The notes: generated by a model from the letters alone, not told the origin. 64,000 nucleotides of DNA from Plasmodiophora brassicae (GCA_036867785.1 CP145421.1:124001-188000); one strand, 5' to 3'; positions 8,850 through 43,545 are shown, counted from the first letter of the stretch. Numbers and translations: made by a program.

Positions 8850-9060
8850 GATCGCTGACGCCAGTCGATCACCGGATTATGGTGTTCAAGCCACGGCATC
8901 CCGAGAATGATGGGATGGTTGGGAGCGCGGATCACATTCAAAATCAAGTTGCTGTCCTGGAACTGACCGTCGACCCTCACAGCCATGGGTAGCGTCTCCT
9001 GCGACACCGGCGGTAGGGCCCTGCCATCAACCACTTTGACAGCAATCGCCTGCTGCTTCG
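8850..9060 (-). pseudogene. Gypsy-type aspartic protease C-terminal remnant
   Basis: AVKVVDGRAL...LNVIRAPNHPIILGMPWLEHHNPVIDWRQRS matches the retroviral-like RVP_2 motif ILGMPWL..HNP.IDW. Confidence 0.75.
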
Positions 9061-9211
9061 CAACGCAGGGAGTGTCGTTCTGTGACATCTCTCAATCTAG
9101 CATTGAGACGTTGTCATCGAAACGCAGTTCGAACTCTGATTTATTCCTGGCCCGCTGGTCTGCCAACCTCCAGTGTGTCTCCGGAGTCCGCAACGGTCTC
9201 CGGAGTCCGCC

Positions 9212-12200
9212 TGTGCTAACGCCGCCGCTGCCCACTACGGGGGCGGTCGGTCGCAAGAGTCGGCGCCTGGTGATATAACGAACTGATGTATTTGGACAGG
9301 ATCGTCACAGCAAGGGCCGCTGCGGGGTCGAGTACGGTCATGATCATGTGACCGGGTGGCAGCAGCATCTGAGCAGCATCATCTGAGTACTGGTACTCTG
9401 GATGAACACTCCCCGTGTTAGAAATCTGCTAACAGTCGTGAGCAGAGCGAGTCTCCTTCGGCGTGTCGTTCGAGGAAGGCCCTGACGATATCAGGAACAT
9501 CGGCCGCCATGACCGAGTAAGGTTCCCATGAATTGTCGGTGGCATCGAATCCGATCCAGTTGATCAGTAGTTCAGTGTCACCTGACGTAGAATTGACTCG
9601 AATGTCCTCGACTGCGTTGACTTGGTAAGCCACGCCGGTGAGCGCGATGTTGTGTTTCAGGGAAGAGGTGACATTCAAGTGCGCATCTGCATAGAACATT
9701 AAGCGCTGGGCGTGTACATCTGAGATACGATCAGTCAAGAGATCTCGAACTCGATACACCCAGTCGTTGATGGTGTCGATAATCTGGGCAGGTCCAGTCC
9801 AGTTGTACTCGGACTTGGAGTGCTTGCCATGGTTGGCCACGAGGACATAGTCGCCCGTCGTGAAGTTGATCTCGCGAACATTGCGTCGGCGACGCCGGGC
9901 GCGTTGCTTGAGATCACGTAGATGGGTGCGTGTACGTGCCACTGCTTTGTGCATGTCCTCGAGAGAATCGATAAGTTCCGTCGTCATTTCCTTGAGACGG
10001 TCAGGGGTCAACGGTACGTCGATAACCGCGTCGATGCGTTTGTTGAAGATAATCGAGATAGGTGTCGAGGGTGGCAAACCCGTAAACATCGTGACAGGCG
10101 CGTAGCCCACACTTGATCGAACAGTGTGATTTACCGTCATGTTGATCAGCGGAAGGACATACGGCCAATCCTGGAATGGAAGATTTAGCTCGGAGAGGAG
10201 GGACTTCAGCAGAAAGAGAAGCCGCTTGTTGACAACCTCAACCGTGCCGTTCGCCCAAGGTGTGTAGGCAGTTGTGAAATGATGGTTGCAGTGTAACCGG
10301 CTATTAAGCTCGGCGATAACCGTGTTTTTGAAGTGTGTGCCGCGGTCAGAGACATGTTGGAAAACAATGCCGAAACGTTTGAACCAATCCAGAAGAGATT
10401 CGGCGACAACGCTGTGATCCGCGAATTGACAAGGAATTAACTCGACGAATGCCGTGGCGTCGTCCTTCAGAACCAGAACATAACGAAGTTGATGAGAATC
10501 GCCTGGACGAGGTTTGGATAAGAACAGAAAGTCATAGTGGATGACCTTATTGGGCTTGTCCGCATGCATAGCCGTGCCAAAAGGTCGGGGAATCATCGAA
10601 TCTTTGTTGCGTAGGCAGTGTAAGCATTTGTCCACAAATGCACGAACAAAGGAATCCAGATCAGGCCACCAGAAGAGTTGTGCGATGCTCGAAATAGTCG
10701 ATGCAGCAGGTTGATGACCAGACAGTCCCATATGTGAAATCACTGCGATGCGTAGCTGCAGTGCATGTGATGGTACCCAGAGTTGATTGTCTGGAGTACG
10801 CCAGCCAGATTCCGGGCTAAGGTGGAGAGACATGTCCCCTTCGAGTTGGAGAATATCGGAAACGACAGATAAGTCGTGTTGGCGAATGTAGTCGGTCTGA
10901 GCGTTACTAATCTCGTCGACAGACGGCCAGATAAACTCATCGGTCATCTTGTAATCGTCGAAGTCAAGATTAATTGCCATATGACGAATAGAACGGAACG
11001 ATGGAGGGGAAAATGAGGAGAGTGGTTGCAGGGCGACGCCCCACCGCGTGGCGAGGTCGGCCCAAACGTTGTCCTCCCCAGCAATGTGCTCAATGTGAAA
11101 ATCTAGGTCGATAATCTGAAGTCGCCAGCGCTCCAAGCGATCGCCGGTCGTCCGACTAATTCGTGCAACCGAGGCTGGGTTCAGAATGAAAACCAGATTA
11201 CGGTGGTCCGTGAAGATTCGAAGTGCCAACTTTGACATAGATATGAAGTGTCTGAGGCGATAGCAGCCTTCGATGATGGCGTAGGCCTCCTTCTCAATGG
11301 TCGCCCACTTCAATTGAGAACCACGGAATGTCCCCGAGATGAACGACAAAGGTTCGTGGTGTTGCTCACCGTACGGAAGATCAATATCTTCCGGAGGGAT
11401 CTGCGACAGGAAAACAGACCAGAAACGGTCACTCGCATCCGGAAAGAGACACATGATCCATTCGTCCTTGGGGTGCGCCAGCGTCATGGCCTCCGATAGA
11501 CGATGCTTCAGAGAATTGAAACTGGTGAGATGGTCAGTGGTCCAGCCGATGTCGGCTAAACGAACTCGACGTAGGTGTGATTTCTTCAGACTGCTGACAG
11601 AACGAGAAGCGGACAGAAGTAGATCCTGTAGCGGATGAACATGTGCCGCGAATTGAGGGATAACAGAACGGACCCAATTGAGGCCCGAGAGGAACTGTTG
11701 GAGATCAGCAGCCGTGATAGGAGTTGATAGATCGTGCAAGGCGTTGAGATACGAGCGATCGAACGACACTCCATCAGCGGATATAACGCGACCGCACCAT
11801 GTCACTGAAGTGAGATATAACTGGCAGCGATCAGGGTTGAGTTTAACTCCAAACTCGTCGAAAGCGTTGAGAAGAGATTCGAGTGTGTCCATGTAGGCTC
11901 CGAATCCAGATACGTAGCCGAGGATATCGTCGATCCAGAGTAGGGCGCAGATATATAGAAGTTTCCCCAACACCTGTTGCATTCCCGCCTGGAACGCAAA
12001 CACGCAATCAGCGATTCCCTGGATGATGCGCCTGGGTGTAAACGTGGCGATGTGCGTCATGAACGAGCAGGCCTCCTGCGACAGGGTGCAACGGAAATTG
12101 CCAATAGCCTTTAAAGGCATCGAACAGCATGAAGATGGTCGCGGAACGTAGGTAGGTCAGGATGATGTCGATGTGAGGCATCGGCCATGCAATGCGTTCG

Positions 12201-14545
12201 GTCTGTTTGTTGACGGCTTCATTGATGTCGACGGTCAGCCGATGGCCGCGAACCTCCGTGTCCTTCTTGTCGACGACCAGACACGGCGACGCGTACCTGC
12301 TGTGCGGATTGCGGTACACAAAATCGTTTTCCGCCAAGGTTCCTACGTGATCATCCATGAATTTTTGATGTTCGAGGGTATACCTTCGTGTTCGGCAACG
12401 AACAGGACGAGCATCTGCTTTGAAGTGTAGTTTCAGTGGACTTACTTTCGCAGGTGGATCACGGCCAAGCTTCGTTCGCCATATGTCTTTGTGTCGATTG
12501 ACAGTTGTGCGTAGACGCGGGACTTGATCGTTAGGGAAACCGGAGTCAGTTGCACGTTGTATCATCCGGTCTATTGCCCTGTCCACGTCTGTATCGGAGT
12601 GTTCTCCGATTTCGACATCATAGTCGTCACCCGGATCATTGGTGTCCAATTGGGGCTCATGATCGCGAGTTGTTCCACTTACCTCCGGGTGTCTTACCGC
12701 TCTCATCGTGATCCCTTGACCACCTGGGGCGTGACGTTCCGGGGTCGGATCCGCTTCGATGATGATAGGACCATTTGCCTCGATTAACATCTCCTTCAGT
12801 TGTGTAGCTGGATTGATACCCAACGCGTCCAGTTCCGGGGCTCCTAAAAGGACAATGTCATCAGATAGGTCTTCGCGACATACGTTGATTTCCCGCCCGC
12901 GTAGATGTGCAGGTTTGCCATGCGAAGGTGGGACAATGGTGATGTCCACGATCGCTGTGGCGACAATTGTTGTCGTAGCCCCGATCGTCGCAAGTTTCGC
13001 CTCCGTTGGATGGTCGAACACTTTGACTGGGACATGCTGGATGGCTTGAATCCGTAGCAGTTGCGACTGCGAAATGACGGTCTTCGTCGCACCACTATCG
13101 GCTTCGAATGGAAGGTCGAGCGAGTTCTGGAAGCGAAGTCTCATAGGGGACGGTGTTGACGGCGACGGCGGGCCCATGCGCTTTGCCGCGTCTGCGTTGC
13201 CCTTATTCTCCTCCTTCTCTTTGCGCTCTTTCTGGAACTTCTCAATGGCAGCTTTGCGTTCTCCTTGTGTTGCCTTCGGGCACACTTGGACCCAGTGCTG
13301 CTCCTTGCAGATTAGGCAACCTGCCTTTGGAGGATCCTTACCTTCGAAACGTTTTCGGATGTGCTCGGGGGTGTCCCTCGATTCGTCTTTCGTTTGCGAT
13401 GTGGACGATTGAGCTGTCTTCAGTCCGATCGGATTTGTCGGATGCTTGCCGCCATTCCTATTCGGAGCAACAACGTCCTTACCTTTCTTACCTGCAGGTG
13501 GGGACATGGTCTGCGCTGGAGACTTCTTCTTCTCAGCTTGCAGCCGGAAGTGTTTGTCCTGCTCTTTGGCAAGACGGTCGACGAGGTCGAAGAATTTGAG
13601 CTCGTCCTTCTCAGCGTCCCTGCACCCTCCGAACTCGATCGCGCGTTCGACTAGAACCGCAAGGTCAGTGGGACGGATACCTCCGCGTAATACCTTGATC
13701 TTGCGCTTGGTTCCTTTCGTTCCTTTGGCGTATGTGTCTTGTAGCCCATAGTCGTCGATTAGCTCATCGAACTTGGCGAAGAAAGACGTGACACGTTCCT
13801 CAATACTCTTGATTGACAGGTTCATGACCACTGTCTTCGTGAGAAGCGCCTTGATGTCTGTCGAACTCTCGACATCAGCCTCCCTGCGTTGGACTGACCT
13901 CAAGTAGCTCATGATGTCGCCATCCGTGATCGTGCTGGCGGGTTGACGTAGGCGATATTTCGACATCCCTTTGAGGACGTCCTCGGTAATGCATGACTTC
14001 ACCGTTGGCGGATGAATATCCTCCTTGTAGATCAGTCGGCGCTCGTTAACGATCTCGACGTGTTTCCTATATTTCTTGAGGAAATCGTTAATTCCGTCCT
14101 TGGCCGTAAGGCTCAGGGTACGTAGGATGGGCGGTTTCAAAGGCATAAAGATCGGGCTCTTACCGTGCAGGTTTGTTGACTGAAGCCCTCGATCGATTTC
14201 GTCATCTGTCGACGATTCATGCTCCTTGGCCTCGGCGTCGGAGTTGGTCCTGGCGTCGTCCTCCATCTGTAGACGAACGGGCGCTCTGCGGCCACCTCCT
14301 GCCATTAAGTGAGTTCGTTTGCTTGGGGCTCTTTGCGCAAGAAGCTTCTGTGCTAACGCCGCCGCTGCCCACTACGGGGGCGGTCGGTCGCAAGAGTCGG
14401 CGCCTGGTGATATAACGAACTGATGTATTTGGACAGGATCGTCACAGCAAGGGCCGCTGCGGGGTCGAGTACGGTCATGATCATGTGACCGGGTGGCAGC
14501 AGCATCTGAGCAGCATCATCTGAGTACTGGTACTCTGGATGAACA
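9212..14545 (-). mobile_element. Full-length chromodomain-bearing Ty3/Gypsy element (Gypsy-1)
   Basis: 197-bp LTRs 9212-9408 and 14349-14545, apparently identical. TSD CCGCC, PPT CGGGGAG. Inserted into a 19-bp tandem repeat (ACGGTCTCCGGAGTCCGC). Confidence 0.97.
9418..14305 (-). CDS. Gypsy-1 gag-PR-RT-RH-IN-chromodomain, frameshifted near 12082
   Basis: CLICKEQHWVQVC, ADSGA, DAFKGYWQ, WIDD, PDAS/EKEA/TDH, HYDF/DRGTHF/NGTVE, chromodomain LLINWIGFDATDNSWEP. Confidence 0.93.
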
Positions 14546-14997
14546 CCGCCACGGTCTCCGGAGTCCGCGGTCTATTCTGGGAACACACGACTGGACCTTG
14601 TGGGACTGTTGACTGTGCCTGCCCGGAGTTTCCGGTAGTTGTGGTCTAGCGGAGTTGCATGCCGGTTCAAGGTGTGACCGTGATCATCATAGGTGCAGCT
14701 AGGCTGTGCATATGATTCACTCCCCTCGTCAAGCTAAAGTCCCCCTGTTGCGCTTTGACCCTGTTGTTGGCGCTGTAGTGGGGTCTTGCAGGGTGGCGGC
14801 TCCGGGGCGAGTCTATGGGCTCATCGAGTCCTCCAAGGTTCGCAGGTGATTGGTCTTCCTCACTTCGGTTGACCAGCCTACACTACTGACGACATCCACC
14901 CCCCTGTGGGAGGTGGTCACCTTTTTACAGGCGCCCCTTCACCTTCCACCTGCTCAAATGACCCCCTATGATCAGTCCTAAACGACACTTACTGGGC

Positions 14998-15148
14998 TGT
15001 CGGGCACCCACAGGACAAAGGTGAAAAACGCGGGCGCCGCTGGGAATCGAACCCAGGGCCAACGGTTGAACGTACCGCTGCTGTACCACTCAGCTACGGC
15101 GCCTGAAGTCCGACTGGCGTGAGGATTGGATGTATGTAATTCCTGACA
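14998..15148 (-). mobile_element. 151-bp Copia-type 3' LTR containing a tRNA-like gene
   Basis: Termini TGTCAGG...CCCGACA, preceded on the - strand by PPT TTGAGGGGGCG (same style as the other Copia/TRIM PPTs here). Confidence 0.7.
15032..15103 (-). tRNA. tRNA-like gene with intact cloverleaf but non-canonical anticodon loop (ACGTTCA)
   Basis: GGCGCCG TA GCTG AGTGGTA CAGC A GCGGT ACGTTCA ACCGT TGGCC CTGGG TTCGATT CCCAG CGGCGCC C. A box TAGCTGAGTGG, B box GGTTCGATTCC, TTTTT terminator 3 nt downstream. Confidence 0.85.
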
Positions 15149-15162
15149 CGCCCCCTCAATCC

Positions 15163-15261
15163 TGAAACGACGAAATCAGAGTGAGATATATTGATGGATA
15201 TAGAGCGAAGATATTGGGTGTGACGGGCAACGTCGTAGACGTGAGACGCGGTGCACGTTAC
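15163..15261 (-). mobile_element. LTR end fragment related to Copia-2
   Basis: First 31 bp (TGAAACGACGAAATCAGAGTGAGATATATTG) are identical to the Copia-2 5' LTR end at 24166-24196. Confidence 0.65.
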
Positions 15262-16197
15262 TAAGAACGACAATAACGAAGTGATTTATTCCACCGACAT
15301 CGGCGCGAGACGATGGCGACGTAACGCAGTGTAACAGGGCTTGCCAAAGCCGTTACCGGCAACGGCGACGGTGGCGGAGCCTCTGTTGTGGACGTGACAC
15401 AGTCGCGCACCCACACAATGTCATCGTGTGCCGGTGGTAGGACATGGTCCTCGACACGCCCCCTCCAACGGCACGCGGTTGCATGCGGAAGGCGGTCGAA
15501 CGGACGTGTCCCGGCTGGATCTTCGACTCTGGATCATGTACAACACGACCTTGCTCGTGCTTGTATGTCTTGGCTTGTTGACGCGACACGAGACTGATCG
15601 TGGCGTAGCTAGAGCTGACATGTATGGCGCGATATGCTGGGGCGGAGTCGACAGTGACGACAGAGACTGAAGGACGTGGCTCGGGACGACACCGACGCCG
15701 AAGGCGCCGGCGGACAACGTTATATCGAGAAGAGGTTGAGGCAAGCGATTGAGGCCCGTACGACCGGCGTACGCCTGGCGCTTACGTCCCGGTACTGGTT
15801 CTGGATTCCCGTAATGACGGCCTGCCTTGCTTGCACGATCTGCCTCGGCTCTCTGGCGCGTGGCGCGACTGGAGTGGGCGTTCGTGGCGCGTTGTGCAGA
15901 AGCAGGGTCAGGGCAGAGACGCAGTGACGCGGGACTGGCTCTGGATGGCACCGGCGCGCCGGGCGCCGGCGGGCTCGCCGCCTCGAAGCGCGCGAACGCT
16001 ACGACTGTTAATCTAAGAACGACAATAACGAAGTGGATGTATTACGTACGGCGTGTGCGGCGGACGTTACAGTGGCGACGTAGTCGCCGACGGTGTAACG
16101 GTTGCCAACGCCGGCGGGCACGGAGTCGCGGAGTGCGTGACGGCGTTCACGTGCTGCAGGCATGTGCTGCTGGTCGTAGTGGATACGTTGTTCGACA
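15262..16197 (-). mobile_element. Non-autonomous TRIM-like element (TRIM-B) with discordant LTRs
   Basis: 3' LTR 15262-15456, PPT, internal region homologous to TRIM-A, PBS 16000-16013. The 5' LTR 16014-16197 shares only TGTCGA and the last ~22 bp. No TSD. Confidence 0.8.
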
Positions 16198-16636
16198 GCA
16201 TCGTCACGACGACGTCAGCCTCGCCACGTCATCGGGCTAAATCGGGGCACGCAGTTTGTCTAAATATAGTCCAGGACCGTCAGGTCAGGTGGCAGCACGT
16301 TGATGTAGGGAACGAGACGCTATAAATAGAGCCCCGCTCTACACTGCCTTTCTCCAAACTCGTGACCGGAATCATCGGTGAGCACGTAGTACGTAGATGG
16401 TGAAGTTGACAGAAGGTAGTGTGAGACTCGGAATCACCCAATACTCACTAAAAACCACCTTGTAACCCCATGGGAAAAATCGGTGGAAAATCCATTTACG
16501 GACACCCTTGCCACCAAACACCATCGGTGCAACGAAGACATAAGCGATGGTGCGCTCGACCCACATAGGTGGAGCCCGGTCCATATACATCTGGAAAGTA
16601 TCATTCACCTAACTCAGCGGCCGACCCACATAGGTG

Positions 16637-17586
16637 TGTCGAGGATCATGTCGTACCACCGGCACACGGTGACACCGTGACAGTGCGCGACTGCGTAACG
16701 TCCTCGGCAGAGGCTCCGCCACTGACGCCGTTGTCGGTAACGGCTTGGCAAGCCCCTGTTACACAGCGTTACATCGCCACCGTCTCGCGCCGATGTCGGT
16801 CGGAATAAATCACTTCGTTATCGTCTTCATCAGATTAACAGTCGTAGGCGTTCTGCGCGCTTCGAGGCGGTGAGCCCACCGGCGCCCCGCGCGCCGGTGC
16901 CATCCAGTGCCAGTCCCGCGTCACTGTGTCTCTGCCCTGACCCTGCTTCTGCACAACGCGCCACGAACGCCCACTCCAGTCGCGCCACGCGCAAGAGAGT
17001 CCAGGCAGATCGCGCCAGCAAGGCAGGCCGTCATTAAGGGGATCCAGAACCAGTACCGGGACGTAAGTGCCAGGCGTACGCCGGTCGTACGGGCCTCAAT
17101 CGCTTGCCTCAATCGCTTCGCAAGATAACGTTGTCCGTCGGCGCAATCTGCGTCGACGTCGTCCTGAGCCAGATCCAACACCCTGCGCGTCATCGTCGAA
17201 CCCGCCTCAGCAAATTGCGCCATTCATGTCACCTCAAGCTACGCCACGATCCGTCTCGTGCCGCGTCAACGAGCCAAGGCATATGAGCACGTGCAAGGCG
17301 GTGTTGTTCATGATTCAGAGTCAAAGGTCCAGCCGGGACACATCCGTTCGACCGTCTTCCGCATGCAACCGCGTGCCGTTGGAGGGGGCGTGTCGAGGAT
17401 CATGTCGTACCACCGGCACACGGTGACACCGTGACAGTGCGCGACTGCGTAACGTCCTCGGCAGAGGCTCCGCCACTGACGCCGTTGTCGGTAACGGCTT
17501 GGCAAGCCCCTGTTACACAGCGTTACATCGCCACCGTCTCGCGCCGATGTCGGTCGGAATAAATCACTTCGTTATCGTCTTCATCA
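16637..17586 (+). mobile_element. Young non-autonomous TRIM-like LTR element (TRIM-A, 950 bp)
   Basis: 196-bp apparently identical LTRs 16637-16832 and 17391-17586, TSD AGGTG, PBS GATTAACAGTCGTA, PPT GGAGGGGGCG, no pol. Confidence 0.95.
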
Positions 17587-18022
17587 AGGTGGACCCCCAG
17601 CGCAACAGAGTCTCGATAGCCAGTACGCCCTGACCAGAGTCAACTGCGGTGAAGAGGAACTTAACAGACGCTGCCGACTGCCTCGTGATCGTAACGTATC
17701 AATGAGGTCACCGTCATGACCCATCGAGGAACGTATTGGCCTCTCATAGGAGTGCCATAAACCATAGTCGCATGACGTCCATGACAACCAGGTTAACTGA
17801 TCCCATGACGTCCATGAAAATCAGTGAAGCGGGTCCCAACGTTTTGAGTACCCGGTCCTCAGCTATAGAAGACCATGATCCAGATCATCTTCGTAACGTT
17901 CACCATGAACCGATACGGTGGCGTCGTCCGTGATTAGGTCCCGACGCAACGTATGAAGCGTATACGATTGTTGATTCCTACGAACCCAACAACCGTAAAT
18001 CATGGATACCTTGCACCCATAC

Positions 18023-21000
18023 CTAATGTTTTGTTCGTTGCTTCCGTTGCGCTTGTCGCTTCCCCGTATTCGTACCCTTTTGCATCGGCGCCATTTCTCG
18101 TAACGCCTCCACTTGCGGATGATCATCTCCGAGACGTCGTATAAGCTTCTGGACTAGTTCGGGAACATCTTCGTAGATGATACGAGCAGGTTCCCACGTT
18201 GCTTCCGCCTCGTCGAATCCAGACCATAGAACCTTGATCTGAAGTTCTTGCGTTTCTCGATCCACTCGACAGTCCAGTAGATCGTCCACCAACAGCTGGT
18301 TATCAGCGTGCTGGAGATGACGCTTGAGATCGACGGTCATGTTCAGGTCGGCGTCAGCGTATCGTCGAATTCGTTGTGAGTGTGCGTTGAAGTGTCGTTC
18401 AGTGAGCGGGTCTTCCAGCTCGTACACTTGATCGTTGATCATCTTGACGACTCGATATGGGCCTCGCCACTGGGCTATCAACTTCTGAGCAGGACCCGGT
18501 ACCGGTTTTGCGTTGAGCACGTAGTCGCCAACGATGAACGATTCGTAGTGGCTCTTGTTCAGGCGTCGTCGCCGTTGTGCCTTTGCTTCATCAACGGCCT
18601 TGTGAATCTCGTCGAGGACCTCTTGTAACGTCGGCACATACTTGGCGAATCCTTCAGGTGGTATGCGTCGCCATTGTCTCTCCTTCGGATCCCAGATCTG
18701 GTCGAGCGGGCTTTCTGGCGAACGCCCCGTGACGACCGTGATCGGCGCGTAACCGTTGAGACGTCGACTTGGCGTGTGGTTAATGACGTGCTGAACGACT
18801 GGACACAAGTACGGCCAGTTGTGCGTCGTAATCTGGGCCTCGTTCAGGATCGAACGCATGACGTTGAGCACAGTGCGGTTTGCGCGCTCCACCGTGCCAT
18901 TGGCCCATGGACAGTATGCAGTCGTGATGTGATGCTGAACATCTCGTAACCTGGTAAGCTCCTCCATGATTTCCGCCGTGAAGTGTGAACCACCGTCCGT
19001 GACCAGGTACTCAGGCGTCGCGAAATCAGCAATCCACTGATTCAGAGCTTCCGTAGCAACACGACTTGTCGCCTCAGCTGATGGGATCAGGCGTACGTAG
19101 CCGCTGAAGTCGTCCTTCAGGAGCAGGATGTACTTGTACTGGTGGTCCGTGCCCCTGACTGGCTCCACGTAGAGGTAATCCATGGTGAGCACGTCGAACG
19201 GCTTGTGGCCATGCAACGCTTCACCAAGTGGTCTTGGAACTTTCTTACCACCGCGTGTCGTAATGCAATGCAGGCATTGCTGGCACATCGCTTGAATGTC
19301 CTGACTGATCTTCTTCCAGACGAAGCGCTCCATGATCATCTGCTTGGTTACGTCGTACGCACGATGACCAGCGCTCGCGCAATGACCAATAATCAGGATC
19401 CGTAGTCGTAGACTCTTGCAGTCCAGATGGCATGGGATGAGAACAGCTTTGTCCTCGTTCTTCCACAAACGATCAGCTTCGTCGAAGTAGACGCCATTGT
19501 CAATCTTCTCGTCCCGTGACAGTAGTCGCTGTGCATCGCGAATCTCCATCTCCGTCGGCCAGCTAAACTCAGGATGCTGCCGAGGAGTGACTTGCAAGTC
19601 GTCAAGCTCCATGATGCGTGCTGCTCGACATGACAAGGCGATACGACCGGCGCCCCATCTTGTCAGCAGGTCAGCCCAAACGTTGTCCTCTCCGGCGATG
19701 CTCTTCGTCTGGTAGCGGAACCCCTGCAGGTGCAACGCCCAACGTTCCAGCTTCTGGGCGGTGTGCTTCTTCATTTCGGAGTCCTGACTGAAAATGAACG
19801 TCAGATTGCGATGATCGGTATAGAGTAGGAACTCTCGTGATGTCTGAAGCAGGAAGTCCCCGCGTTCCGTAGCGTAGATGATCGCGGCCGCCTCCTTCTC
19901 GGGCGTAGACCATCGTAGTTCTGAACCAGCGAAGCGTTTGCCATAGAACGCGAGAGGTTCGTGACGTTGATCGCAAACAGGCAGGTCGATATCCTCCAAC
20001 GGGATCTGCGTGATGACAGCTGCCCATGCCGTTTCACTTGCGTCGGTGAACAGGCATGTCTGGTAGTTCGACTTCGGGTAGGCCAGCTGAACGTGTTGAA
20101 TCAGGGCGAACCGTATGTCCGTAAATGACTTGTTGTGCTGGTCACTCCAACCCAACGCGTCAAGCGTGATCGATGATGGCGTTGCGGATCGAATACGCTT
20201 CAACTCGTCATTGGCCCGATCGATAATGTCTTGTAGTGGACGGATGATACATGGATAGCCGGGTATGTGAGTACGCATCCAGTTGGCCGCCCATAGGAAC
20301 TGCTGCAACTCCTTGACAGTTCGCGGACGCGACATGGTCGTAAGCGCTTCAATACGTTCTGGGTCATGTCGTACACCATCACGTGAGTAGATTCGCCCGC
20401 ACCACTTCAGTTCACGAGCGAATAACGTGCACTTGCCCGGATTCAGTTTCACATTGCGTTCACGACATCTCTCAAGAACCCGCGTCAGCTGATGTAGCAG
20501 GTCATCCTCTGACTTTGCGAATCCAAGGAGGTCGTCGATCCATATCAGCAGATTGTCCTTCATGTCGTCGAAGATCGCTGCCATCCGAGCATGAAATTGA
20601 ATTGCCGAGTTCATGCCTCCTTGAATACTCCTCGTAGGCGTATAGACAGCGTCGTCCGTCATGAAGCTGAATTTTTCTTGGCATTCCTTTGCCAACGGCA
20701 TTAGCCAGAAGCCTTTGAACGCGTCGATCGTGAAGAAGCATGTCATGCCAGCAAGCTTGCGCGTGACCGCCTCCACGTTAGGCATCGGCCAGGCGGTGGG
20801 AACACACCGCGCGTTGACCTGGCGTAGGTCGACACATAGACGGTAGCCGTCGCCCTTCGGTTTCTTTACGACTAAGACGGGACTTGCCCAGCGAGAGTTC
20901 ATGTTCATGTAGATGAGACCGTTCTCCTTGAGCATTTTGACCATATCGTCAAGGAATTCCTTCTGCTTCGGGTTGTAGAACCGCGGCTTGCACCGGTAAG

Positions 21001-21720
21001 GCGTGATATCCGGCTTCAGCTGCGTTACCATCGGTTCGACATCGACAGGCTTATCTTGCCCCAGCCGCGTACGGAATTCGTTCAGGTGTCGTCGCAATAT
21101 CAGACGTAGTCGAGCAACTCCATGTCGGGACATTCCGTTGAGGCGTGCTTGATGCACCATTCGATTGCACGACGTTTCGATCTCGTGCACGTTGATTGGT
21201 CCCAGGTCGACTTCACTTGAAGATGGCTCAGCGGAGTCTGGTTCCTGAGGGGCTTGAAAGTAGTCGCTTCCAAGCGTTGTCATTCTAGCAGCAATGCGCC
21301 GCACAGTCTCGATTGAATCGACGTCGACTGCCGCACATCCTGACAGCGTGTCCATCTCGGTACATCCTGATGCGATGATGTTCTCCAGCTGCTTATGCGG
21401 GTTGATGCCAACGCAGATAGAAGATTGTCACCGAACAGGATCACTGGAATCGTGTCGCAGACGTAGTAGGTCACATGGTACAGCTTAAGGTTGCCAACCT
21501 CGGTCTCCAGAGTCGTGACTGGAACTTGTACCATTCTCGTGATCGTCCCGATGACCTTGCCATCTGCGGAAGTGATGTCTCGTGGCTGGGCGTCGCGAAA
21601 TGTGGCATCATTCAACTGGTCAGCGATATGGCCAGGTATGATATTTCCACCACGACAGCCCGAATCCAGTTCGTAGGGAACGCGTATGCCTTCCAGCACT
21701 ACCCGTTGCATTGATTCCTC
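18023..21720 (-). CDS. Gypsy-2 PR-RT-RH-IN-chromodomain (frameshift ~21410)
   Basis: LDSGC protease, DAFKGFW, WIDD, TDAS/EKEA/TDH, TMDY/DGGSHF/NGTVER, chromodomain IKVLWSGFDEAEATWEP. Confidence 0.92.
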
Positions 21721-22086
21721 AGTCCCAGTGTACCCGTCAGTCTTCTGGACCGTTTGCGCCTTGCGACTGAGATGCCATGACGTTGTAAACAGTTGCGACG
21801 CTCCGCCGCCCGTTAACGTGTAACGTGTACGTGTGGTTGGACGTATACGTAGGGGTGGGACGTAGTGCGCACTGTAGTCCCGTGTCTGCAGACTCTTGAC
21901 GGCACGTAATGACACAGAAACAGAATGACGTTTATCGATCGCATCGTCACGACGACGTCAGCCTCGCCACGTCATCGTGCTAAATCGGGGCACGCAGTTT
22001 GTCTAAATATAGTCCAGGACCGTCAGGTCAGGTGGCAGCACGTTGATGTAGGGAACGAGACGCTATAAATAGAGCCCCGCTCTACA

Positions 22087-24196
22087 CATTGGATGACACC
22101 GGAACGGGGGATGCTGATGGTAGCGGTGGGATAACGGCGTCGGCAGCAGCGGGTGATGATGTAAGAACGGCAACGGTGGACGGGGAACTGGCGGCGAGTA
22201 CGGGCGCGGCCTGTGAAGACTCGAGACCAGAGTTCGACCGCCCGAAGCCGAAGGTGAACGACGTTTCCAGGAATTCGGCCGTCGTGCTCTCGAATGTGTC
22301 ACCTCGTTCGACGTCATAGAAGCGCCATGCCTTCATCCCTGGCGTAAAGCCGATGAATACAGCGCGAACGCGACGATGATCCAGCTTGGTCGGCTTCTTC
22401 GAAGAGGGGTAAGGGCGCATGGCGTACGTGTCGCAGCCGTAGACGCGCAGGGAAGAGACATCAGGTTTAGCGAAGCGAGCCGCCTGGAACGATGAGCGAC
22501 GCCCCGGAAGGACGGATCGAGGATGGACATTGTAGAGGACGGCAGAATACGAGAGCGACCAGGGCCAGGTGAAATCGGGCATACGCGCGTGACACCGGAT
22601 AGCGCCTTCGATACAGCACAGGCTGTAGTTGACAATTTCGGCTCGGCCGCTCTGCTCGGGCGTATACGGAACCGACTTGCGATGAAGGATGCCGGACTCA
22701 TTGTAGAATGTAACGCATGCCTTGGAATTAAACTCGCCTCCGCCATCTGTTTGGAAGTCGGAAATGCCACGTCCCTCCTGGTTACGTAGACGTGCATCGT
22801 AGTGCTTGATGACATCGAGGGCGTCCGATTTTCGACGGAGCAGGTAGACGGCCAGGTAGCGCGTTGAATCATCCAGCATGGTCTGGTAATACTCGACGCC
22901 AATACCGACGACAGGCCACCGCCCGGAGAGGTCACTATGGACGAGATCGCCAACGCGACGTGCTCGCGACGTACTGGGAGGGAATGATGAGCGCTTGCCT
23001 TTGGTGAGAAGACAGGCCTCGCATGGACATCGATCCTGAAGCTTGGGAATGGGCTGATCGAAGGCCATTCCCCGACAGCGGCGCTGCAGGAGACGCAGAT
23101 AGACGTAGCCGAGATGTCCAACGCTGTAGACCGGACCGCCCAACTAGGCCACGGGAGCAGCTGCTCTCGTGGCCTAGTTGGGCGGTCCGGTCTACAACGC
23201 GCGCGTGCCAAAGGGCGGTCGATGCGGAGGCGACTGTGGCGGCGCGGCAGGACACGCTGGGCGCAGCCGATGAATAAATTTCAGTTGACGATGGGGCAGC
23301 GGGAGCACGGAGGGCGATCCTGTAGAGATTATCGGCTCCTCGCGTGCTGACCGCTAGCGGGGTCCCGACAGGGGACGTCCAGTTGTCCTTGGAATAGATG
23401 GTCGCGTTGGGCCCATCGAAGACGATCTTGTGTCCGGATCGGGTGATCTGTCCAACGGAGACGAGCGCTTGGCCGAGTCGTGGGACGTGCAGCGTGTCGT
23501 TCGGGACTGTTGTACGGAAACGTTGGGCAGCGGCTTGCAGACGAGCCGCGTACAAGGCGACCGATTCACCGGCTTGCTGTCGAACACTGAACAAATCTTT
23601 AGAAGCACGAATGACAGACGAAAACGTGCAGGGTCGCAGCATGCGGAAGAGAGCGCGCCAGCATTGCGCCGATGTACCGGCGTACAGCAAGTTGTAGCCG
23701 ATCAGAACGGTCTTGTCGACCATCTGAAACAAGAGTATCTCCCGAGCAGGTGCCTCCAGATCCGCGTCCACATTGTCGGGGATACTCGGAGTCGGCGATC
23801 CGTCCAGGTCGATGCCGACAATTCCCGCGAATCCACGGTTGGTAAACCAAGACGCGGCGGCGGGCGCCCAAGCGGCAAACATTTCGTGCTTGCCGTCGAA
23901 CCGAGGCGGAGGCACGCGATCTGTACCTGGACGCACTACGCCGTCCACAATGGTTGGGCGAGGCTGCGTCGCCGGCGTCGTGGCGATGCAGGAGTACGAT
24001 GCGGTTTGCTGTCGCAGGAATGCGATGCGCGCGATCTTCTCCTGTCGCTCGGCCTCAGCGAGCTGCGCGTCGAGATCTTGGACATCTGACTCCGCCGTTC
24101 GGCCGCGATCGGCCATGACGTTGGACGCGAGCGAAACGCCCAGAGCGCGGTTACGACTGTTAATCTGAAACGACGAAATCAGAGTGAGATATATTG
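22087..24196 (-). mobile_element. Truncated Copia (Copia-2): LTR end, PBS, gag, partial PR, integrase; RT/RH missing
   Basis: PBS 24152-24165, gag PRFDGK..FAAW, LHVPRLGQALVSV, WHAR|VGHL, VHSDLSG/TDGGGEF/EQSGRAE. Confidence 0.9.
23125..23196. mobile_element. 72-bp palindromic insertion with TGTAGA..TCTACA ends
   Basis: 36+36 inverted repeat with one mismatch, 4-bp TSD ACGC. Removing it restores WHARVGHL. Confidence 0.9.
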
Positions 24197-26072: not shown

Positions 26073-26859
26073 ATATCGATCTGCGCTGAGTAGCGCTTTG
26101 CGAATGGCGATCAGTTCATGTGGCATCAGAGGCGAATCACCTTGCGCAGTGTAATCAACGAGGTCGATTTGCGTCACGCGACGGTACCGGTTCTTCACGT
26201 TCTGATGCGATCGCGGGCAGCCCGATCTCCACAAGCGCGGGACTCCAGCGTGAAAATTACACGAGACATTATTGTCCCGGTACGCGACAATACACGCAGG
26301 ACATGGTTCTGAGTACTGTCCGCTCTGGTGCCTCGCAACATGCAAATCACTGACAGCTGACAACAGCTGGTTGCATGAGTTCGGATCGTTCCAGGCACCC
26401 GTTGCGAGGATAGGCTGTCTCGAGAAGTAATCCAGAACGGGACCAACGCGATGAGAACTGACGGCATCGTCACGATGCACAACAACGGGAGTGCCAGGTG
26501 GCAGGACCTTGAAATCGATGAACGCCATGAGTGTGTCTGCACTCATCGATGGACAGAATTCGGTGGGAGCTCGCTCGTCGAGAATGATCAATGACTCAAA
26601 ATCACCAATTCGTTTGCAGAACAGAGCCAGCTGACGGTAGAGCTGCTTGTACTGCTTGTGCGAGTTCTGCTTCAGGACGCGATTGCCAGTCAGTTGCCTG
26701 TCACGATCAGGCAAGCTGATGCAACGAACGCTTTGACGGACTGGCGAAGTCCGTCGCGGGGTTCTCGGTTTATTCCGGACAGTCCTCACATAATAGTCCC
26801 CTTCTAGCGATGGGCCTCTGACGGGTCCGGGATAGAAGGGCAGACGGATGGCCTCTGAT

Positions 26860-27142
26860 GGGTCGCAGACGAACGGACAGGCGGATGAGCAGGCAGACGG
26901 ACGGGCAGACGGACGGACAGACGAACGGACAGGCGGATGAGCAGGCAGACGGGCGGGCAGACGGACGGACAGACGAACGATGAGCAGGCAGACGGGCGGG
27001 CAGACGGACGGACAGACGGACGAACGGGCAGACGGACGGACAGACGGACGAACGGGCAGACGGACGGACAGACGGACGAACGGGCAGACGGACGGATTAG
27101 CAGACGGACGGAGAGACGGGCGGGCGGGCAGACGGACGAACA
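26860..27142. repeat. (GACG/GGCA/GACA)n tetranucleotide-based microsatellite inside TRIM-C
   Basis: Visible GGAC/AGAC/GGGC iterations. Confidence 0.9.
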
Positions 27143-27166
27143 GGTTTGGTTAGTGACAGCACGTCG

Positions 27167-27965
27167 CAACCGAGGCCTTGACGTTGTGCAGGAGATGCCG
27201 AGGCGGGATCGACACTGGCGGACGGACGGACGGGTAGAGACAGCAAGCGGTCAGGGAAACACCGGCGGCCTGGGAGGCAAACAGCACGGCGGGACACGCG
27301 CACTCTGGAACTTGGACCAGCTGCGACCGAGGCCTTGACGTTGTGCAGGAGATGCCGAGGCGGGATCGGCACGGACGGACGGGAAGAGACAGCAAGTGGT
27401 CAGGGGAACACCGGTGGCCTGAGAGGCATACAGCACGGCGGGACACGTACTCTGGGACTTGGGCCAGGTACGACCAAGGCCTTGACGTTCTGCGGGGGAT
27501 GCCGAGGCGAGATCGGCACGGACGGACGGACGGGCGGGAAGAGACAGCAAGCGGTCAGGGGAACACCGGTGGCCTGAGAGGCATACAGCACGGCGGGACA
27601 CGCACTCTGGGACTTGGACCAGGTACGACCGAGGCCTTGACGTTCTGCGGGGGATGCCGAGGCGAGATCGGCACGGACGGACGGGAAGAGACAGCAAGCG
27701 GTCAGGGGAACACCGGTGGCCTGAGAGGCATACAGCACGGCGGGACACGCACTCTGGGACTTGGACCAGGTACGACCGAGGCCTTGACGTTCTGCGGGGG
27801 ATGCCGAGGCGAGATCGGCACGGACGGACGGGAAGAGACAGCAAGCGGTCAGGGGAACACCGGTGGCCTGAGAGGCATACAGCACGGCGGGACACGCACT
27901 CTGGGACTTGGACCAGGTACGACCGAGGCCTTGACGTTCTGCAGGAGATGCCGAGGCGGGATCGA
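27167..27965. repeat. ~147-bp tandem repeat, ~5.3 copies, inside TRIM-C
   Basis: GACC(G/A)AGGCCTTGACG recurs at 27325, 27472, 27627, 27774, 27921. Confidence 0.95.
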
Positions 27966-28614
27966 CAGGAGGGTGGTGGGATAGGTAGTCCGTCAAAATG
28001 TCACGATCAGGCAAGCTGATGCAACGAACGCTTTGACGGACTGGCGAAGTCCGTCGCGGGGTTCTCGGTTTATTCCGGACAGTCCTCACATTGCCCGCCG
28101 TGAGCTGAGAAGCGCAGGCCCATGCGGGCCAATGCCTCGCCGACTCTCTGCCGAACCACATCTTCTTGCGACGTTGTGAGCGGACGCATTCGCTGTTGCA
28201 CACCGTTGTCGACCAACTCGTCAACTGCAGACGCCCCGAAAGACCGCCTCTCTTGCCGAAGATTGCGCCGACGGGGTCGCAGTGCCCCCGACCCCGTAGG
28301 GGGAAGGGTACGGGGAAGGAGAGGGGAAGGTGCGGGGAAGGTGGCCATTTTGCAACCGGATAACGTCTTTCCTATAGATTATTTGTCAGGATAATATGTC
28401 ATATGGACCCAAAATAGAAGCATGGGAGAGCCTGATTTCGTGAGAGCACTGGAATGAACCACAATGTCGACAGGAGTCCGAACCTTCGGGACGAGGTGGA
28501 GGCTGGAATGGACTATCCAGGATGAAAGCTACCGTTTGCCTCCAAGGTCCTCATTTTTCGCTACATCCTGTCAAACATGCATGTCATATTATACGACACA
28601 ATCCACGGAGTTTG

Positions 28615-28726
28615 GGGCTAAATCGGGGCACGCAGTTTGTCTAAATATAGTCCAGGACCGTCAGGTGGGCGGTGGCAGCACGTTGATGTAGGGAACGAGA
28701 CGCTATAAATAGAGCCCCGCTCTACA
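28615..28726 (-). mobile_element. Truncated Gypsy-2 family LTR fragment
   Basis: Near-identical to 16235-16343 and 21978-22086. Confidence 0.85.
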
Positions 28727-41237: not shown

Positions 41238-41690
41238 TGTTTCTGCTTTTGATCGGCGGACTGTACCAGACCGCAAATCGACCTTCATTGATCATTTCGC
41301 TACACATGTGTAACGAACAATCGTCCCTGCGGTGCTTCTCGTAGTACTATGAGCTAGGCTTTCTTTGTTTTTCCGCCGCCTTCCGACTAGGAAAGCGTCG
41401 CCGTACGTCGAAACCACGCCGCACTGTCAGTGGATCACATAGGATACATATTGCGATAGGTCACAAGCAGCAGACCGGCGACAAGTTGGATGCAGAAAGA
41501 CGTTGTATCCCAGTATTTCTATATCCGGTTGGTATGTACGTACCTTACCTGTGCCAGCAAGTCCGAGAGGAATCCACTGCGGGCGCCGTGCGAGCGCGCA
41601 GCTAGGGCAGCAGACCAGTTCCCCAGTATATTCCGAGCGAGATCGACATCTTCGGCTCAGCTGCTCATCAACGTACCGAGGTCGGATACA

Positions 41691-42914: not shown

Positions 42915-43545
42915 AGTCGCATATGCCTTTCAGGAGTGACCTTGCCGCCGTAGTATGGTCAGGGAGATGAGAAACACGGGTGCTGGTGTAGAGACAGCGG
43001 CTGGAGCTGCGCACGTAACCGTCGATCAGCGTCTCTGCTGTTACCGACGCTAACAAAATGGGACGCCACCTGACAACGCGTTGACGTCGGACGTGCCGCC
43101 AGCACCGGTACCAATTCCGAATCGTCCGGTTCACATCGAGGCGATTCTACTTTTTAATTGCGTTCAGCACAGGGTGCGGCAGCAATCAATTACCCATTTA
43201 TGCATGCTGAAAGCGAGGTTGATTACGTCAACTCGTTTGCGGCATTCCGAAATCGGCAAATACCGTCACCGACTGATCAATCGACCTGGCGAGGCCATGA
43301 TCAATGTTTGTGCAACCCACTGTATCTGACGGTGTCCTGCAGTGCTGGATGGTACAACGAGCGCGCCCCGGGGAAAGTCCGGGGCGGCATCCGCAAGACG
43401 CAGCCCGCAAGACCACGGGTCAAGGCGCGCAGTTCCGAGAAAGCGCGGAGCCCCTGCCGGGCTGCATGCAGCTGGTCCGTCTCGCAGCGTCCGCACCAGA
43501 CCGGAAAACGTGTCGGAACAACTCAGCCGTTCGTCATCAACATTA

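Follow-up and report, generated by a model that had tools for sequence, protein, structure and literature searches.

Palindromes at the LTR-leader junction of chromodomain Ty3/Gypsy elements from Plasmodiophora brassicae and uncultured soil organisms: a candidate substitute for the PBS

For several groups of LTR retroelements that lack a tRNA-type PBS, there is no settled account of how DNA synthesis starts. The GalEa elements, which are Copia elements of Pezizomycotina, are described as having neither a tRNA-type PBS nor an LTR complement. In these elements, the 9 bp directly past the 5′ LTR together with the final A of the LTR form a 10-nt palindrome, of which there are family variants; 12-41 bp downstream lies another conserved arm of 9 bp (CHSeq2), which is inversely complementary to the first and forms a hairpin (Donnart 2017, BMC Genomics 18:410, PMC5445492). 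The Skipper chromoviruses of dictyostelids are described as having lost the TGG-type PBS and as having no LTR complement, and a novel form of self-priming was suggested for them (Spaller et al. 2016, PMC5006619). In the accounts given in both papers, the start of DNA synthesis is left unexplained. Elements of the Tf1/sushi type (the clade of Tf1, Tj1 and Tcn1) are primed by their own RNA, a short RNA-RNA duplex at the PBS being cut into the primer (PMC4600332, PMC6317226); the PBS of Tf1 is described as non-palindromic (PMC5445492).

Two elements of P. brassicae, G1 and G2, can be compared with these systems. Both lie on the minus strand of the window, i.e., the whole stretch of 64,000 nt that was analysed (GCA_036867785.1 CP145421.1:124001-188000), and their features are collected in Table 1. 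G1 and G2 are Ty3/Gypsy chromoviruses (Metaviridae), as seen from the domain order, the chromodomain at the C-terminal end of the integrase and the structure of the LTRs. The order of Pfam domains in both is RVT_1, RT_RNaseH, Integrase_H2C2 and rve, i.e., the Gypsy-type order of RT, RNase H and integrase, and a search of solved structures gave Ty3 Gag-Pol as the best match (E 2.5e-52). The chromodomain (PF00385) is at residues 844-897 in G1, with 24.4 bits (just below the cutoff of 25.1), and at residues 1047-1094 in G2, with 30.8 bits. In G1, the LTRs have TG..CA ends and are accompanied by a polypurine tract and by a short duplication of the target, as expected of a chromovirus; its first open reading frame matched no Pfam family. 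G2 is without gag and has an LTR and a polypurine tract, and its target duplication is unreadable with the 3′ LTR truncated. G1 looks recently active, judging from its 100% identical LTRs and from a 4.6-kb contig from presumed-RNA sequencing runs that covers its interior. The G1 contig from these runs stops at 14315, away from the edge of the palindrome. Among the rows listed for four sequencing runs in contig form, a minority of the total, no difference, joint or loose end falls at either palindrome, which carries no weight for or against the model. A contig from such runs departs from the window sequence at 9212, the outer edge of the G1 3′ LTR, which is consistent with another copy of G1 ending there, and contig loose ends lie at 16197, within the G2 3′ LTR.

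Table 1. Features of G1 and G2, with positions counted from the first letter of the window
Feature	Position	Strand	Description
G1 palindrome	14340-14349	-	AGAAGCTTCT; perfect, 10 nt; first base is last base of 5′ LTR; PBS position
G1 5′ LTR	14349-14545	-	197 bp, TGT..ACA; 100% identical to 3′ LTR
G1 3′ LTR	9212-9408	-	197 bp; polypurine tract ..GGGGAG just before, about 9409-9414
G1 target-site duplication, 5′ side	14546-14550	-	GGCGG
G1 target-site duplication, 3′ side	9207-9211	-	GGCGG
G1 first ORF	12008-14305	-	gag and upstream part of pol; ATG 43 nt past LTR end
G1 pol ORF	9418-12156	-	RT, RNase H, integrase, chromodomain
G2 palindrome	21864-21873	-	AGTGCGCACT; perfect, 10 nt; starts at inferred last LTR base
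G2 second palindrome	21884-21893	-	GTCTGCAGAC; 10 nt; inside U5, 10 nt ahead of main palindrome
G2 third palindrome	21841-21850	-	ACGTATACGT; 10 nt; in leader
G2 5′ LTR	21873-22086	-	214 bp, TGTAG..CTACA; inner end inferred
G2 3′ LTR, truncated	16185-16344	-	about 160 nt, 97%; polypurine tract GGAGAAAGGCAG before it
G2 pol ORF	18023-21427	-	RT, RNase H, integrase, chromodomain

A preliminary description of the window had reported that each of the two elements has a perfect 10-nt palindrome where a PBS would be expected, beginning at the last base of the LTR. Both palindromes are indeed present on the element strand, and their geometry is as described, for G1 on the evidence of the LTR pair and for G2 on an inferred LTR end. 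In G1, the LTRs of the form TGT..ACA with GGCGG on both flanks place the LTR end at the A at 14349, with which the palindrome opens. This end is certain to within 1 nt, because each copy has a G after the CA and the element lies in a tandem repeat (of 19 nt; contig joint 9204>14562), which also makes the length of the target duplication uncertain. In G2, the LTR end is taken to lie at 21873, from the TGTAG/CTACA termini and from the verified ..GCTACA ends of relatives, which the CTACA terminus fits. The caution expressed earlier about this end was warranted: the inner end is unreadable from the window, since the similarity of the 3′ LTR to the 5′ LTR extends for about 160 nt before the two diverge, and a third LTR fragment (28617-28726) spans LTR positions 2-109 only. 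The earlier statements that there is neither a TGG nor an LTR complement also hold. TGG is absent from the 43 nt that separate the G1 LTR end from the first ATG and, in G2, from the initial 95 nt of the leader. For the 35 nt starting at the last LTR base, G1 has no complement of at least 7 nt in its LTR, and G2 has two of 7 nt with 1-2 G-U pairs.

Relatives comprise 42 metagenome contigs or loci from uncultured soil and rhizosphere organisms; a search of viral contigs and genome contigs with a profile of the pol alignment found no relative. Judged by sequence, the clade carrying the palindromes is a chromodomain Ty3/Gypsy clade consisting of G1, G2 and the elements of these uncultured organisms. 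The junction between LTR and leader is visible in 15 of the 42 loci, of which 13 have a perfect palindrome of at least 10 nt, one (L037) has an interrupted palindrome and one (L023) has none, the last being an internally deleted copy. L022, in which the LTR junction is unrecognisable, was scored as uninformative rather than as a miss. A palindrome in L034 (140-149) was discarded, as it is within the gag coding region, beside a zinc-knuckle motif.

Clustering at a nucleotide identity of at least 85%, with G1 and G2 added, gave 11 families with a junction. Relatives had been proposed as a test of the palindromes, which should recur past the LTR with compensatory changes, and the outcome is positive. 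A perfect palindrome of 10-14 nt starting between -2 and 0 of the LTR end (0 being the last LTR base) is present in 10 of the 11 families, and an interrupted version is present in the remaining one (L037); two-sided changes that keep the palindrome are described below. The palindrome starts at 0 in G1, G2 and families A, D, E and I, and 1-2 nt earlier in families B, C, F and G. Identity in pol between families is only 35-50%. Five of the families are not independent as to the site, since they share the same core, AAAGAATTCTTT. The LTR end is fixed independently in three families: in G1 by the LTR pair; in family A, where L004 and L011 track L005 as far as ..GCTACA and then diverge; and in family G, where L020 and L040 match up to the LTR end and then diverge. 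For G2, L039 and families B-F and H, homology, polypurine tract and terminal repeats, rather than LTR pairs, were used to place the LTR end, and the terminus so placed is TA rather than CA in families B, C and F. The leaders, from LTR end to ATG, are 18-62 nt long with nothing conserved past the palindrome, and thus leave little room for another PBS. The second palindrome of G2, in U5, has a parallel in relatives, in which TCTACGTAGA is present at a similar place; the third, in the leader, has no counterpart among the relatives.

The sequence of the site has changed between families, there being six different perfect palindromes, and the changes have been two-sided. Formal pair counting was limited to a group of four families (alignment A6), in which all 20 cells of the five core pairs are paired, with four pairs showing a two-sided change and none a one-sided change. 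The covariation score of this alignment is 0.714 versus 0.214 for shuffles, none of 500 of which reached 0.714, and is at most 0.214 with the partner slid. The L037 site could not be aligned with those of families A-F by MAFFT, and the families outside the group of four were compared by eye and by script. The changes extend to the middle of the site: L003 differs from L002 and L004 by a central double change of AT to TA, and the central 4 nt are palindromic in six of the seven distinct versions of the site. As these 4 nt would be free in a hairpin, their being kept palindromic favours the pairing of two molecules. With a sequence that varies and a self-complementarity that is kept, including at the centre, the partner of the site is most likely the same site in a second RNA copy of the element.

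No binding site for a tRNA 3′ end or for a Tf1-type self-primer was recognised. In the 11 families there is no TGG within 10 nt of the LTR end (the nearest is at +12, in family A), so none has the TGG at 0-5 nt that marks pairing with a tRNA 3′ end. Skipper elements resemble the present clade in being chromodomain Gypsy elements that, as described, have no TGG-type PBS and no LTR complement, but they have a polypyrimidine stretch rather than a palindrome. For the Tf1/sushi type, the definition used is that of Neumann 2019 (PMC6317226), namely at least 10 nt in the 5′ LTR that are complementary to sequence 0-5 nt past the LTR. No such complement was found in the 12 LTRs tested (one per representative), the longest matches being of 7-8 nt with 1-3 G-U pairs. 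Thus, the present elements resemble the Tf1/sushi type in being chromodomain Gypsy elements and, if the proposal below is correct, in tRNA-independent priming by their own RNA, but differ in that the Tf1-type PBS, as described, is complementary to the very start of the transcript, which lies within the 5′ LTR.

With moderate confidence, the palindromes can be regarded as family-specific forms of one conserved, self-complementary substitute for the PBS, 10-14 nt long, through which two element RNAs would pair and of which one strand, once cut, would probably act as the primer. The last base of U5 is also the first of the site, so that the minus strand has to be initiated at the left edge of the site. 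Two genomic RNAs would pair via the palindromic site; one of them would be cleaved at the duplex's 3′ edge, in the way that the RNase H of Tf1 cuts its RNA-RNA duplex; and the new 3′-OH would prime the copying of U5 and R on the other RNA. The A that the palindromes share with the LTR as its last base could then be explained as the last base of the primer. For Tf1, priming in trans between two RNAs was reportedly observed by Haag in 2000.

The same pairing of two RNAs could have a more limited purpose, in which the site only links or packages the RNA dimer and the primer of the minus strand is a different one, annealing to this place or across it. This is unlikely, but self-complementarity, a palindromic centre and a gain from dimer formation in silico, which count for the preferred reading as well, are just what a dimer site needs. 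In the 10 families whose palindrome is perfect, homodimer formation by a segment of 45 nt is predicted to gain -10.6 to -19.9 kcal/mol, versus about -7 kcal/mol for shuffles. Measured against shuffles, only four of these 10 families have a gain that at most 7 of 200 shuffles reach; the AT-rich palindromes are modestly past their shuffles (11-32 of 200 reach the gain), and the gain for L037, -9.2 kcal/mol, is no better than that of shuffles (85 of 200). Retroviral literature ties palindromes of the PBS region to dimerisation (MMTV, HIV-1), a short palindrome in the 5′ leader there allowing two genomic RNAs to pair, as proposed here, and the dimer initiation site is discussed as an analogy for GalEa by Donnart et al. 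(PMC5445492). However, a site for dimers alone could just as well lie away from U5, but the left edge of the palindrome is at most 2 nt from the LTR end in all families with a perfect palindrome, despite the divergence of their pol sequences, and their short leaders contain no other conserved element and no TGG. In addition, the retroviral site is described as lying in a hairpin loop and as being additional to a tRNA PBS (PMC5445492), whereas here the palindrome is at the position of the PBS, without a stable hairpin and without another PBS.

A hairpin within one RNA, spanning the LTR boundary and either recognised by RT or nucleocapsid or nicked into a primer for the same molecule, is quite improbable as a general explanation. 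A hairpin is described for GalEa elements, and use within the same molecule is loosely proposed for their Conserved Hairpin Site (PMC5445492), but a GalEa-type second arm, looked for 3-92 nt downstream with at most 2 mismatches, is present in none of the 11 families. As monomer hairpins the palindromes alone have predicted energies of 0 to -3.6 kcal/mol, and their flanks give no gain past shuffles in seven of the 11 families (143-478 of 500), although there is some flanking complementarity in G2, B and F (45, 59 and 34 of 500 shuffles, respectively). An extended stem around the palindrome, attractive on inspection (GGGAC..GTCCC in G2, GCA..TGC in G1), was accordingly dropped as a general feature. 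Nor would a loop be required to have a palindromic centre. The family that fits a hairpin is that of L037, with a non-palindromic centre (TGAG) and an interrupted repeat of 6+4+6 within a long monomer hairpin, whose energy of -20.1 kcal/mol is reached by 2 of 500 flank shuffles; for this site, the folding predictions suggest that a hairpin in cis fits better than pairing between two RNAs.

It is very improbable that the site binds a fragment from inside a tRNA, or some other host RNA, with the palindrome as a mere coincidence. Half-tRNA and internal-tRNA primers exist (Neumann 2019, PMC6317226; the PBS of FunCo1, PMC5445492), and the elements using them resemble the present ones in having no TGG and a PBS directly past the LTR; as described, such sites match a host tRNA and are kept from one family to the next. 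The Copia-type elements of the window seem to use a site of this kind: one fixed, non-palindromic 14-mer follows the LTR end at four sites, behind dissimilar LTRs, as would be expected if a host RNA were the primer. The Gypsy palindromes behave differently, as six sequences occur at the same position and all are perfect palindromes of even length, whereas a host primer predicts one conserved sequence. A scan of 9000-22300 with Rfam, at E up to 1, gave only a tRNA (15032-15103) and an overlapping sub-threshold match to mascRNA-menRNA. This tRNA gene, the only one in the window, has no match at the palindrome site, its best match being 8 nt at leader position +32. The arms of tRNAs have 7-nt loops, so gapless palindromes of 10-14 nt would not be expected in them. 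Chance, or a symmetric protein-binding site in the DNA without a role in reverse transcription, is scarcely credible: 10-nt palindromes are about twice as frequent in the window as expected under uniformity (122 versus 62.5 per 64,000 positions) and three lie within 53 nt at G2, but the background rate of a maximal palindrome of at least 10 nt starting at -2 to 0 of randomly chosen positions is p = 913/186,352 = 0.0049, versus 10 of 11 families (binomial about 1e-22, or about 1e-13 counting only the six distinct perfect palindromes among seven site versions), and the lack of conservation of the site sequence argues against a sequence-specific protein site.

The preferred reading remains pairing of two RNAs followed by priming. 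The tRNA-independent priming suggested in the preliminary description, in which co-packaged genomes would pair through the palindrome and a cut strand would act as primer, is partly supported by the palindrome at the boundary, the two-sided changes, the palindromic centre and the lack of a Tf1-type complement; it is less unprecedented than was implied, because GalEa elements have the same geometry. GalEa and the present elements, according to the published description of the former, share the register of the palindrome including the final A of the LTR (as in G1 and G2), the lack of a tRNA PBS and the lack of an LTR complement. They differ in superfamily and hosts (Copia in Pezizomycotina versus chromodomain Gypsy in P. 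brassicae and soil eukaryotes), in the CHSeq2 arm, which is absent here, and in the palindromes, which here are 10-14 nt long and more varied. In the literature collection searched, there was no report of Gypsy elements or chromoviruses whose PBS is palindromic, and none on the LTR elements of P. brassicae.

The clade adds a second, unrelated superfamily in which a palindrome shares the last LTR base. It also adds compensatory variation, which indicates that self-pairing rather than sequence has been selected, and a central palindromy that points to the pairing of two molecules. The model is testable: among its predictions, two mutants that are complementary to each other should rescue one another, and there should be snap-back intermediates of RNA and DNA with the palindrome at their centre. 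In practical terms, such elements of Rhizaria and of soil eukaryote metagenomes will be mis-scored wherever LTR annotation tools demand a tRNA PBS. Tentatively, the palindromic PBS may represent a fourth general way of starting reverse transcription in retroelements, beside the whole tRNA, the half tRNA and the Tf1-type self-primer from the 5′ end: co-packaged genomes would be paired through it and one would be cut and sacrificed as the primer, a solution that would have originated independently in Copia (the fungal GalEa elements) and in Gypsy. If this is true, dimerisation and priming would be one event.

The minus strand of the window carries two LTR retrotransposons, G1 and G2, each encoding reverse transcriptase, RNase H, integrase and a C-terminal chromodomain, in the order of Gypsy elements. 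Yeast Ty3 Gag-Pol is the top solved-structure match for the G2 pol protein, and the two pol proteins are 36% identical. The nearest database proteins are from Plasmodiophora brassicae (95% identity over 57% of the query, 70% over 99%), followed by unnamed metagenome proteins (40-50%) and then Phytophthora (~33-35% identity), which makes P. brassicae the probable source of the window. G2 is a defective copy, in which gag is absent and a protease-like D-S-G motif lies ~65 codons past the LTR end; the closest P. brassicae protein likewise begins within the protease. Elsewhere in the window are three tandem ankyrin-repeat ORFs (~70% repeat identity) and a repeat block with tandem units of 12 and 147 nt, both unrelated to the palindromes.

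In the PBS position of both elements, the preliminary description had placed perfect palindromes, and both read back exactly (see table). It had also put the start of the G1 palindrome at the last LTR base. The LTR pair, the polypurine tract ending GGGGAG ahead of the 3' LTR and the GGCGG that flanks the element on both sides do place the LTR end at the A which opens the palindrome. Because G follows CA in both LTR copies and a 19-nt tandem repeat forms the target, this end carries an uncertainty of 1 nt, and some doubt attaches to the duplication length. In the DNA sequencing runs X1 and X7, 2 contigs each join the G1 flanks (9204/14562) without the element and minus one 19-nt unit; this joint, whose short side is just 22 nt, may stem from an empty allele or from variation in repeat number. 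Antisense to G1, three short joints of 53, 59 and 57 nt, bounded by GT..AG, occur in contigs of the presumed RNA runs X15 and X17 and cover the 3' LTR, polypurine tract and chromodomain region; none occurs in the DNA runs, and the spliced product has no long ORF.

For G2, the 5' LTR begins TGTAG at 22086. The inner LTR end at 21873, which the preliminary description had given as inferred, keeps that status, since the 3' LTR matches for ~160 nt and diverges beyond, and a third LTR fragment (LTR positions 2-109) stops at 109; its CTACA terminus matches the pattern of the relatives, as far as the data allow. Between G1 and G2 lies an inverted-repeat block with arms 87-92% complementary, which looks like a small LTR element present as two inverted copies, one of which seemingly interrupts the G2 3' LTR at ~16185-16197, where several sequencing contigs depart from the window sequence. 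A second 10-nt palindrome lies in U5, 10-17 nt ahead of the main one, in G2 and, with another sequence, in families A and B of the relatives; it is missing from G1 and several other families.

Relatives were sought with an alignment (A2) of the G1 and G2 pol proteins and nine database relatives. A scan of metagenome contigs gave 42 loci from soil and rhizosphere, with 33-61% identity to G2 over the best segment, and a scan of viral and prokaryote-genome collections gave none. The LTR-to-leader (pre-gag) junction was recognised in 15 of the 42, and 13 of these have a perfect palindrome of 10-14 nt there. The other two are L037, with a 6+4+6 interrupted inverted repeat, and L023, with U5-like sequence and no palindrome after it; L023 has lost internal sequence, and its pol match begins at residue 266, ~60 nt further on. 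The remaining 27 loci comprise coding sequence, or a 3' LTR plus flank (L040), absence of the junction not being proven for each; their palindromes of at least 10 nt lie mostly within long reading frames. At a clustering threshold of 85% nucleotide identity, and counting G1 and G2, there are 11 families. Three families share a motif just past the pol stop codon.

Sites of the element families and coordinates of features (window positions unless a locus is named)
Feature	Source	Position (strand)	Sequence or remark
Site, family G1	window	14340-14349 (element strand, -)	AGAAGCTTCT, perfect
Site, family G2	window	21864-21873 (element strand, -)	AGTGCGCACT, perfect
Site, family A	L004, L011		AAAGAATTCTTT
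Site, family D	L002		AAAGAATTCTTT
Site, family B	L012, L014, L016, L035, 3' part of L005		TAAAGAATTCTTTA
Site, family C	L015		TAAAGAATTCTTTA
Site, family F	L006		TAAAGAATTCTTTA
Site, family E	L003		AAAGATATCTTT
Site, family G	L020		ACAGAACGTTCTGT
Site, family I	L039		ACCGCGCGGT
Site, family H	L037		ACATTC-TGAG-GAATGT (interrupted)
G1 LTR pair	window	14349-14545 and 9212-9408 (-)	100% identical, TGT..ACA
G2, gag-less 5' region	window	21100-21873 (-)	
Third G2 LTR fragment	window	28617-28726	
Second U5 palindrome, G2	window	21884-21893	GTCTGCAGAC
Second U5 palindrome, families A and B	L004; L011; L014; L035; L005	505-514; 3645-3654; 4125-4134; 2458-2467; 5436-5445	TCTACGTAGA
Motif past pol stop	L018; L037; L039	~2812-2830; ~2572-2592; ~2018-2038	TTTTCCCACTGGGTTTTT
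Family A element in family B pol	L005	5243-5462	nested
Shared 14-mer	window	876-889 (+), 24154-24167 (-), 16831-16844 (+), 16002-16015 (-)	
tRNA gene	window	15032-15103 (-)	Asn(GTT) by ARAGORN; Rfam tRNA 57.6 bits
Inverted-repeat block	window	15265-17586	
Antisense joints	window	9391-9694 (+)	
Ankyrin-repeat ORFs	window	41460-46685 (+)	
Tandem-repeat block	window	26813-27978	

In three families (G1, A and G) the LTR end is fixed independently of the palindrome, by the G1 LTR pair and by comparisons with L005 and L040. On the L005 contig, a family A element sits within family B pol, and its 3' LTR is identical to the 5' LTR of L004 and L011 up to ..TTGCTACA, past which L005 continues into family B pol, and L004 and L011 into the palindrome. 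L040 is a family G 3' LTR, which agrees with L020 up to ..CGACACAG and then diverges. In all three, a palindrome core of 10 or 12 nt opens at the last LTR base, and the family G palindrome extends 2 nt further into the LTR. The LTR ends of the other families were placed by terminal inverted repeats, the polypurine tract GGGGA(G/A)+TGT, and a terminus reading ..GCTACA or a variant of it, that of L039 solely by the CA ahead of the palindrome. Polypurine-tract placement gives LTR lengths of 207-228 bp (L002, 384 bp), and the inferred end in families B, C and F is TA, not CA.

Ten-nt palindromes number 122 per 64,000 bases of the window, and the chance that a maximal palindrome of at least 10 nt starts at -2 to 0 of a random position is 913/186,352 = 0.0049 (window plus all fetched loci). 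Relative to the LTR end, one starts there in 10 of the 11 families (binomial against p = 0.0049, ~1e-22); the post-LTR palindrome of the preliminary description thus recurs in the relatives, with two-sided changes. Reduced to the seven site versions, of which six are distinct perfect palindromes, the binomial is ~1e-13. The families with AAAGAATTCTTT are not independent, and therefore the base changes weigh more than the family counts. When G1, G2, L020 and L039 are aligned (A6), the five core pairs are intact in 20/20 cells, with two-sided change in four pairs and one-sided change in none; the covariation score is 0.714 versus 0.214 for shuffles (0/500 reach 0.714), and slid partners score at most 0.214. 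L003 differs from L002 and L004 by a central double change, AT to TA, and L037 keeps six outer pairs with other bases around a broken centre. In a hairpin, the central four bases are the loop and are free to vary; here they are AATT, ATAT, AGCT, ACGT, GCGC, GCGC and TGAG, palindromic in 6/7. Selection for self-pairing at a site that replaces the PBS is held with far more confidence than the full mechanism set out below.

Neumann (2019) describes primers of three types: a whole tRNA, a half tRNA, and a self-primer that is released by cutting the 5' LTR transcript. For the self-primer, no LTR complement of the Tf1 type (at least 10 nt) was found in 12 representatives. The preliminary description had found neither TGG nor a leader complement in the LTRs, and this agrees with the present search: no TGG precedes the first ATG in the G1 or G2 leader, G1 has no complement of at least 7 nt, and G2 has two of 7 nt, with G-U pairs. 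As for tRNA, TGG is absent within 10 nt of the LTR end in all 11 families, and the sole tRNA gene of the window does not match the sites; read by eye, its anticodon loop lacks the usual U at position 33, and the gene may thus be a repeat derived from tRNA. A host primer would not lead one to expect six distinct perfect palindromes at a single position. The window offers its own control, one non-palindromic 14-mer lacking TGG that follows four Copia-type or small LTR-element ends with unlike LTR sequences, as expected of a primer encoded by the host. It is a putative PBS for some internal segment of a host tRNA, a candidate, by eye, being an Asn-type anticodon arm, and it resembles the internal-tRNA PBS of FunCo1 in the accessible text of PMC5445492.

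Folding in silico appears to support self-pairing in part. The palindromes folded alone give 0 to -3.6 kcal/mol, and the predicted homodimer gain of a 45-nt segment is -10.6 to -19.9 kcal/mol in the 10 perfect-palindrome families versus about -7 for shuffles, a gain matched by at most 7/200 shuffles in just 4 of the 10 and only modestly above shuffles at AT-rich sites. The gain in L037 (-9.2 kcal/mol) is no better than shuffles (85/200). Conserved flanking complementarity was rejected as a general feature, exceeding flank shuffles in L037 alone (2/500) and being weak in F, G2 and B (34-59/500).

The start point of minus-strand synthesis determines the 3' boundary of U5, and thus the primer 3' end must lie on the left edge of the site. 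Since the site is variable yet self-complementary, centre included, and leaders are short (18-62 nt, with no other conserved feature), the simplest partner is its counterpart on another copy of the element RNA. Trans priming in Tf1, a self-primed Gypsy element, was reportedly found by Haag in 2000. In the proposed mechanism, two genomic RNAs would pair through the palindrome, and a cut in one, at the duplex 3' edge, would leave a 3' end that primes U5-R copying on the other; retention of the primer's terminal base on the minus strand would then account for the inclusion of the last LTR base in the palindrome. The proposed cut would parallel RNase H cleavage of the Tf1 duplex, as the accessible text of PMC4600332 presents it. 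The preliminary description had read the palindrome as a site of pairing between element RNAs, and good support exists for self-pairing where synthesis begins; its further proposal, that a cut partner RNA serves as primer, is plausible, and the full course of pairing, cut and priming by the partner RNA stands in our judgement at an even balance.

Skipper chromoviruses, in the part of the literature accessible, have a polypyrimidine run in place of the PBS. The literature searched, to which subscription journals and supplements may add, holds no report of Gypsy elements or chromoviruses with a palindromic PBS, nor of P. brassicae LTR elements. The closest parallel is GalEa, a group of fungal Copia elements. 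According to the accessible text of Donnart et al. (2017; PMC5445492), these have no PBS; the 9 bp after the 5' LTR are palindromic with the final A of the LTR, mostly CTGATCAGT or CTAATTAGT; a second arm lies 12-41 bp downstream, which gives a “Conserved Hairpin Site”; and Donnart et al. found neither an LTR complement nor a fitting model. Elsewhere in the literature searched, that term is used for bivalve TRIMs only. As far as that text shows, the palindrome geometry of GalEa is identical to that of the Gypsy clade of G1 and G2, whereas superfamily and hosts differ, and the second arm has a counterpart in 0/11 families. The geometry is already known, though obscure; its variant without the second arm, in Gypsy elements, appears new in the literature searched.
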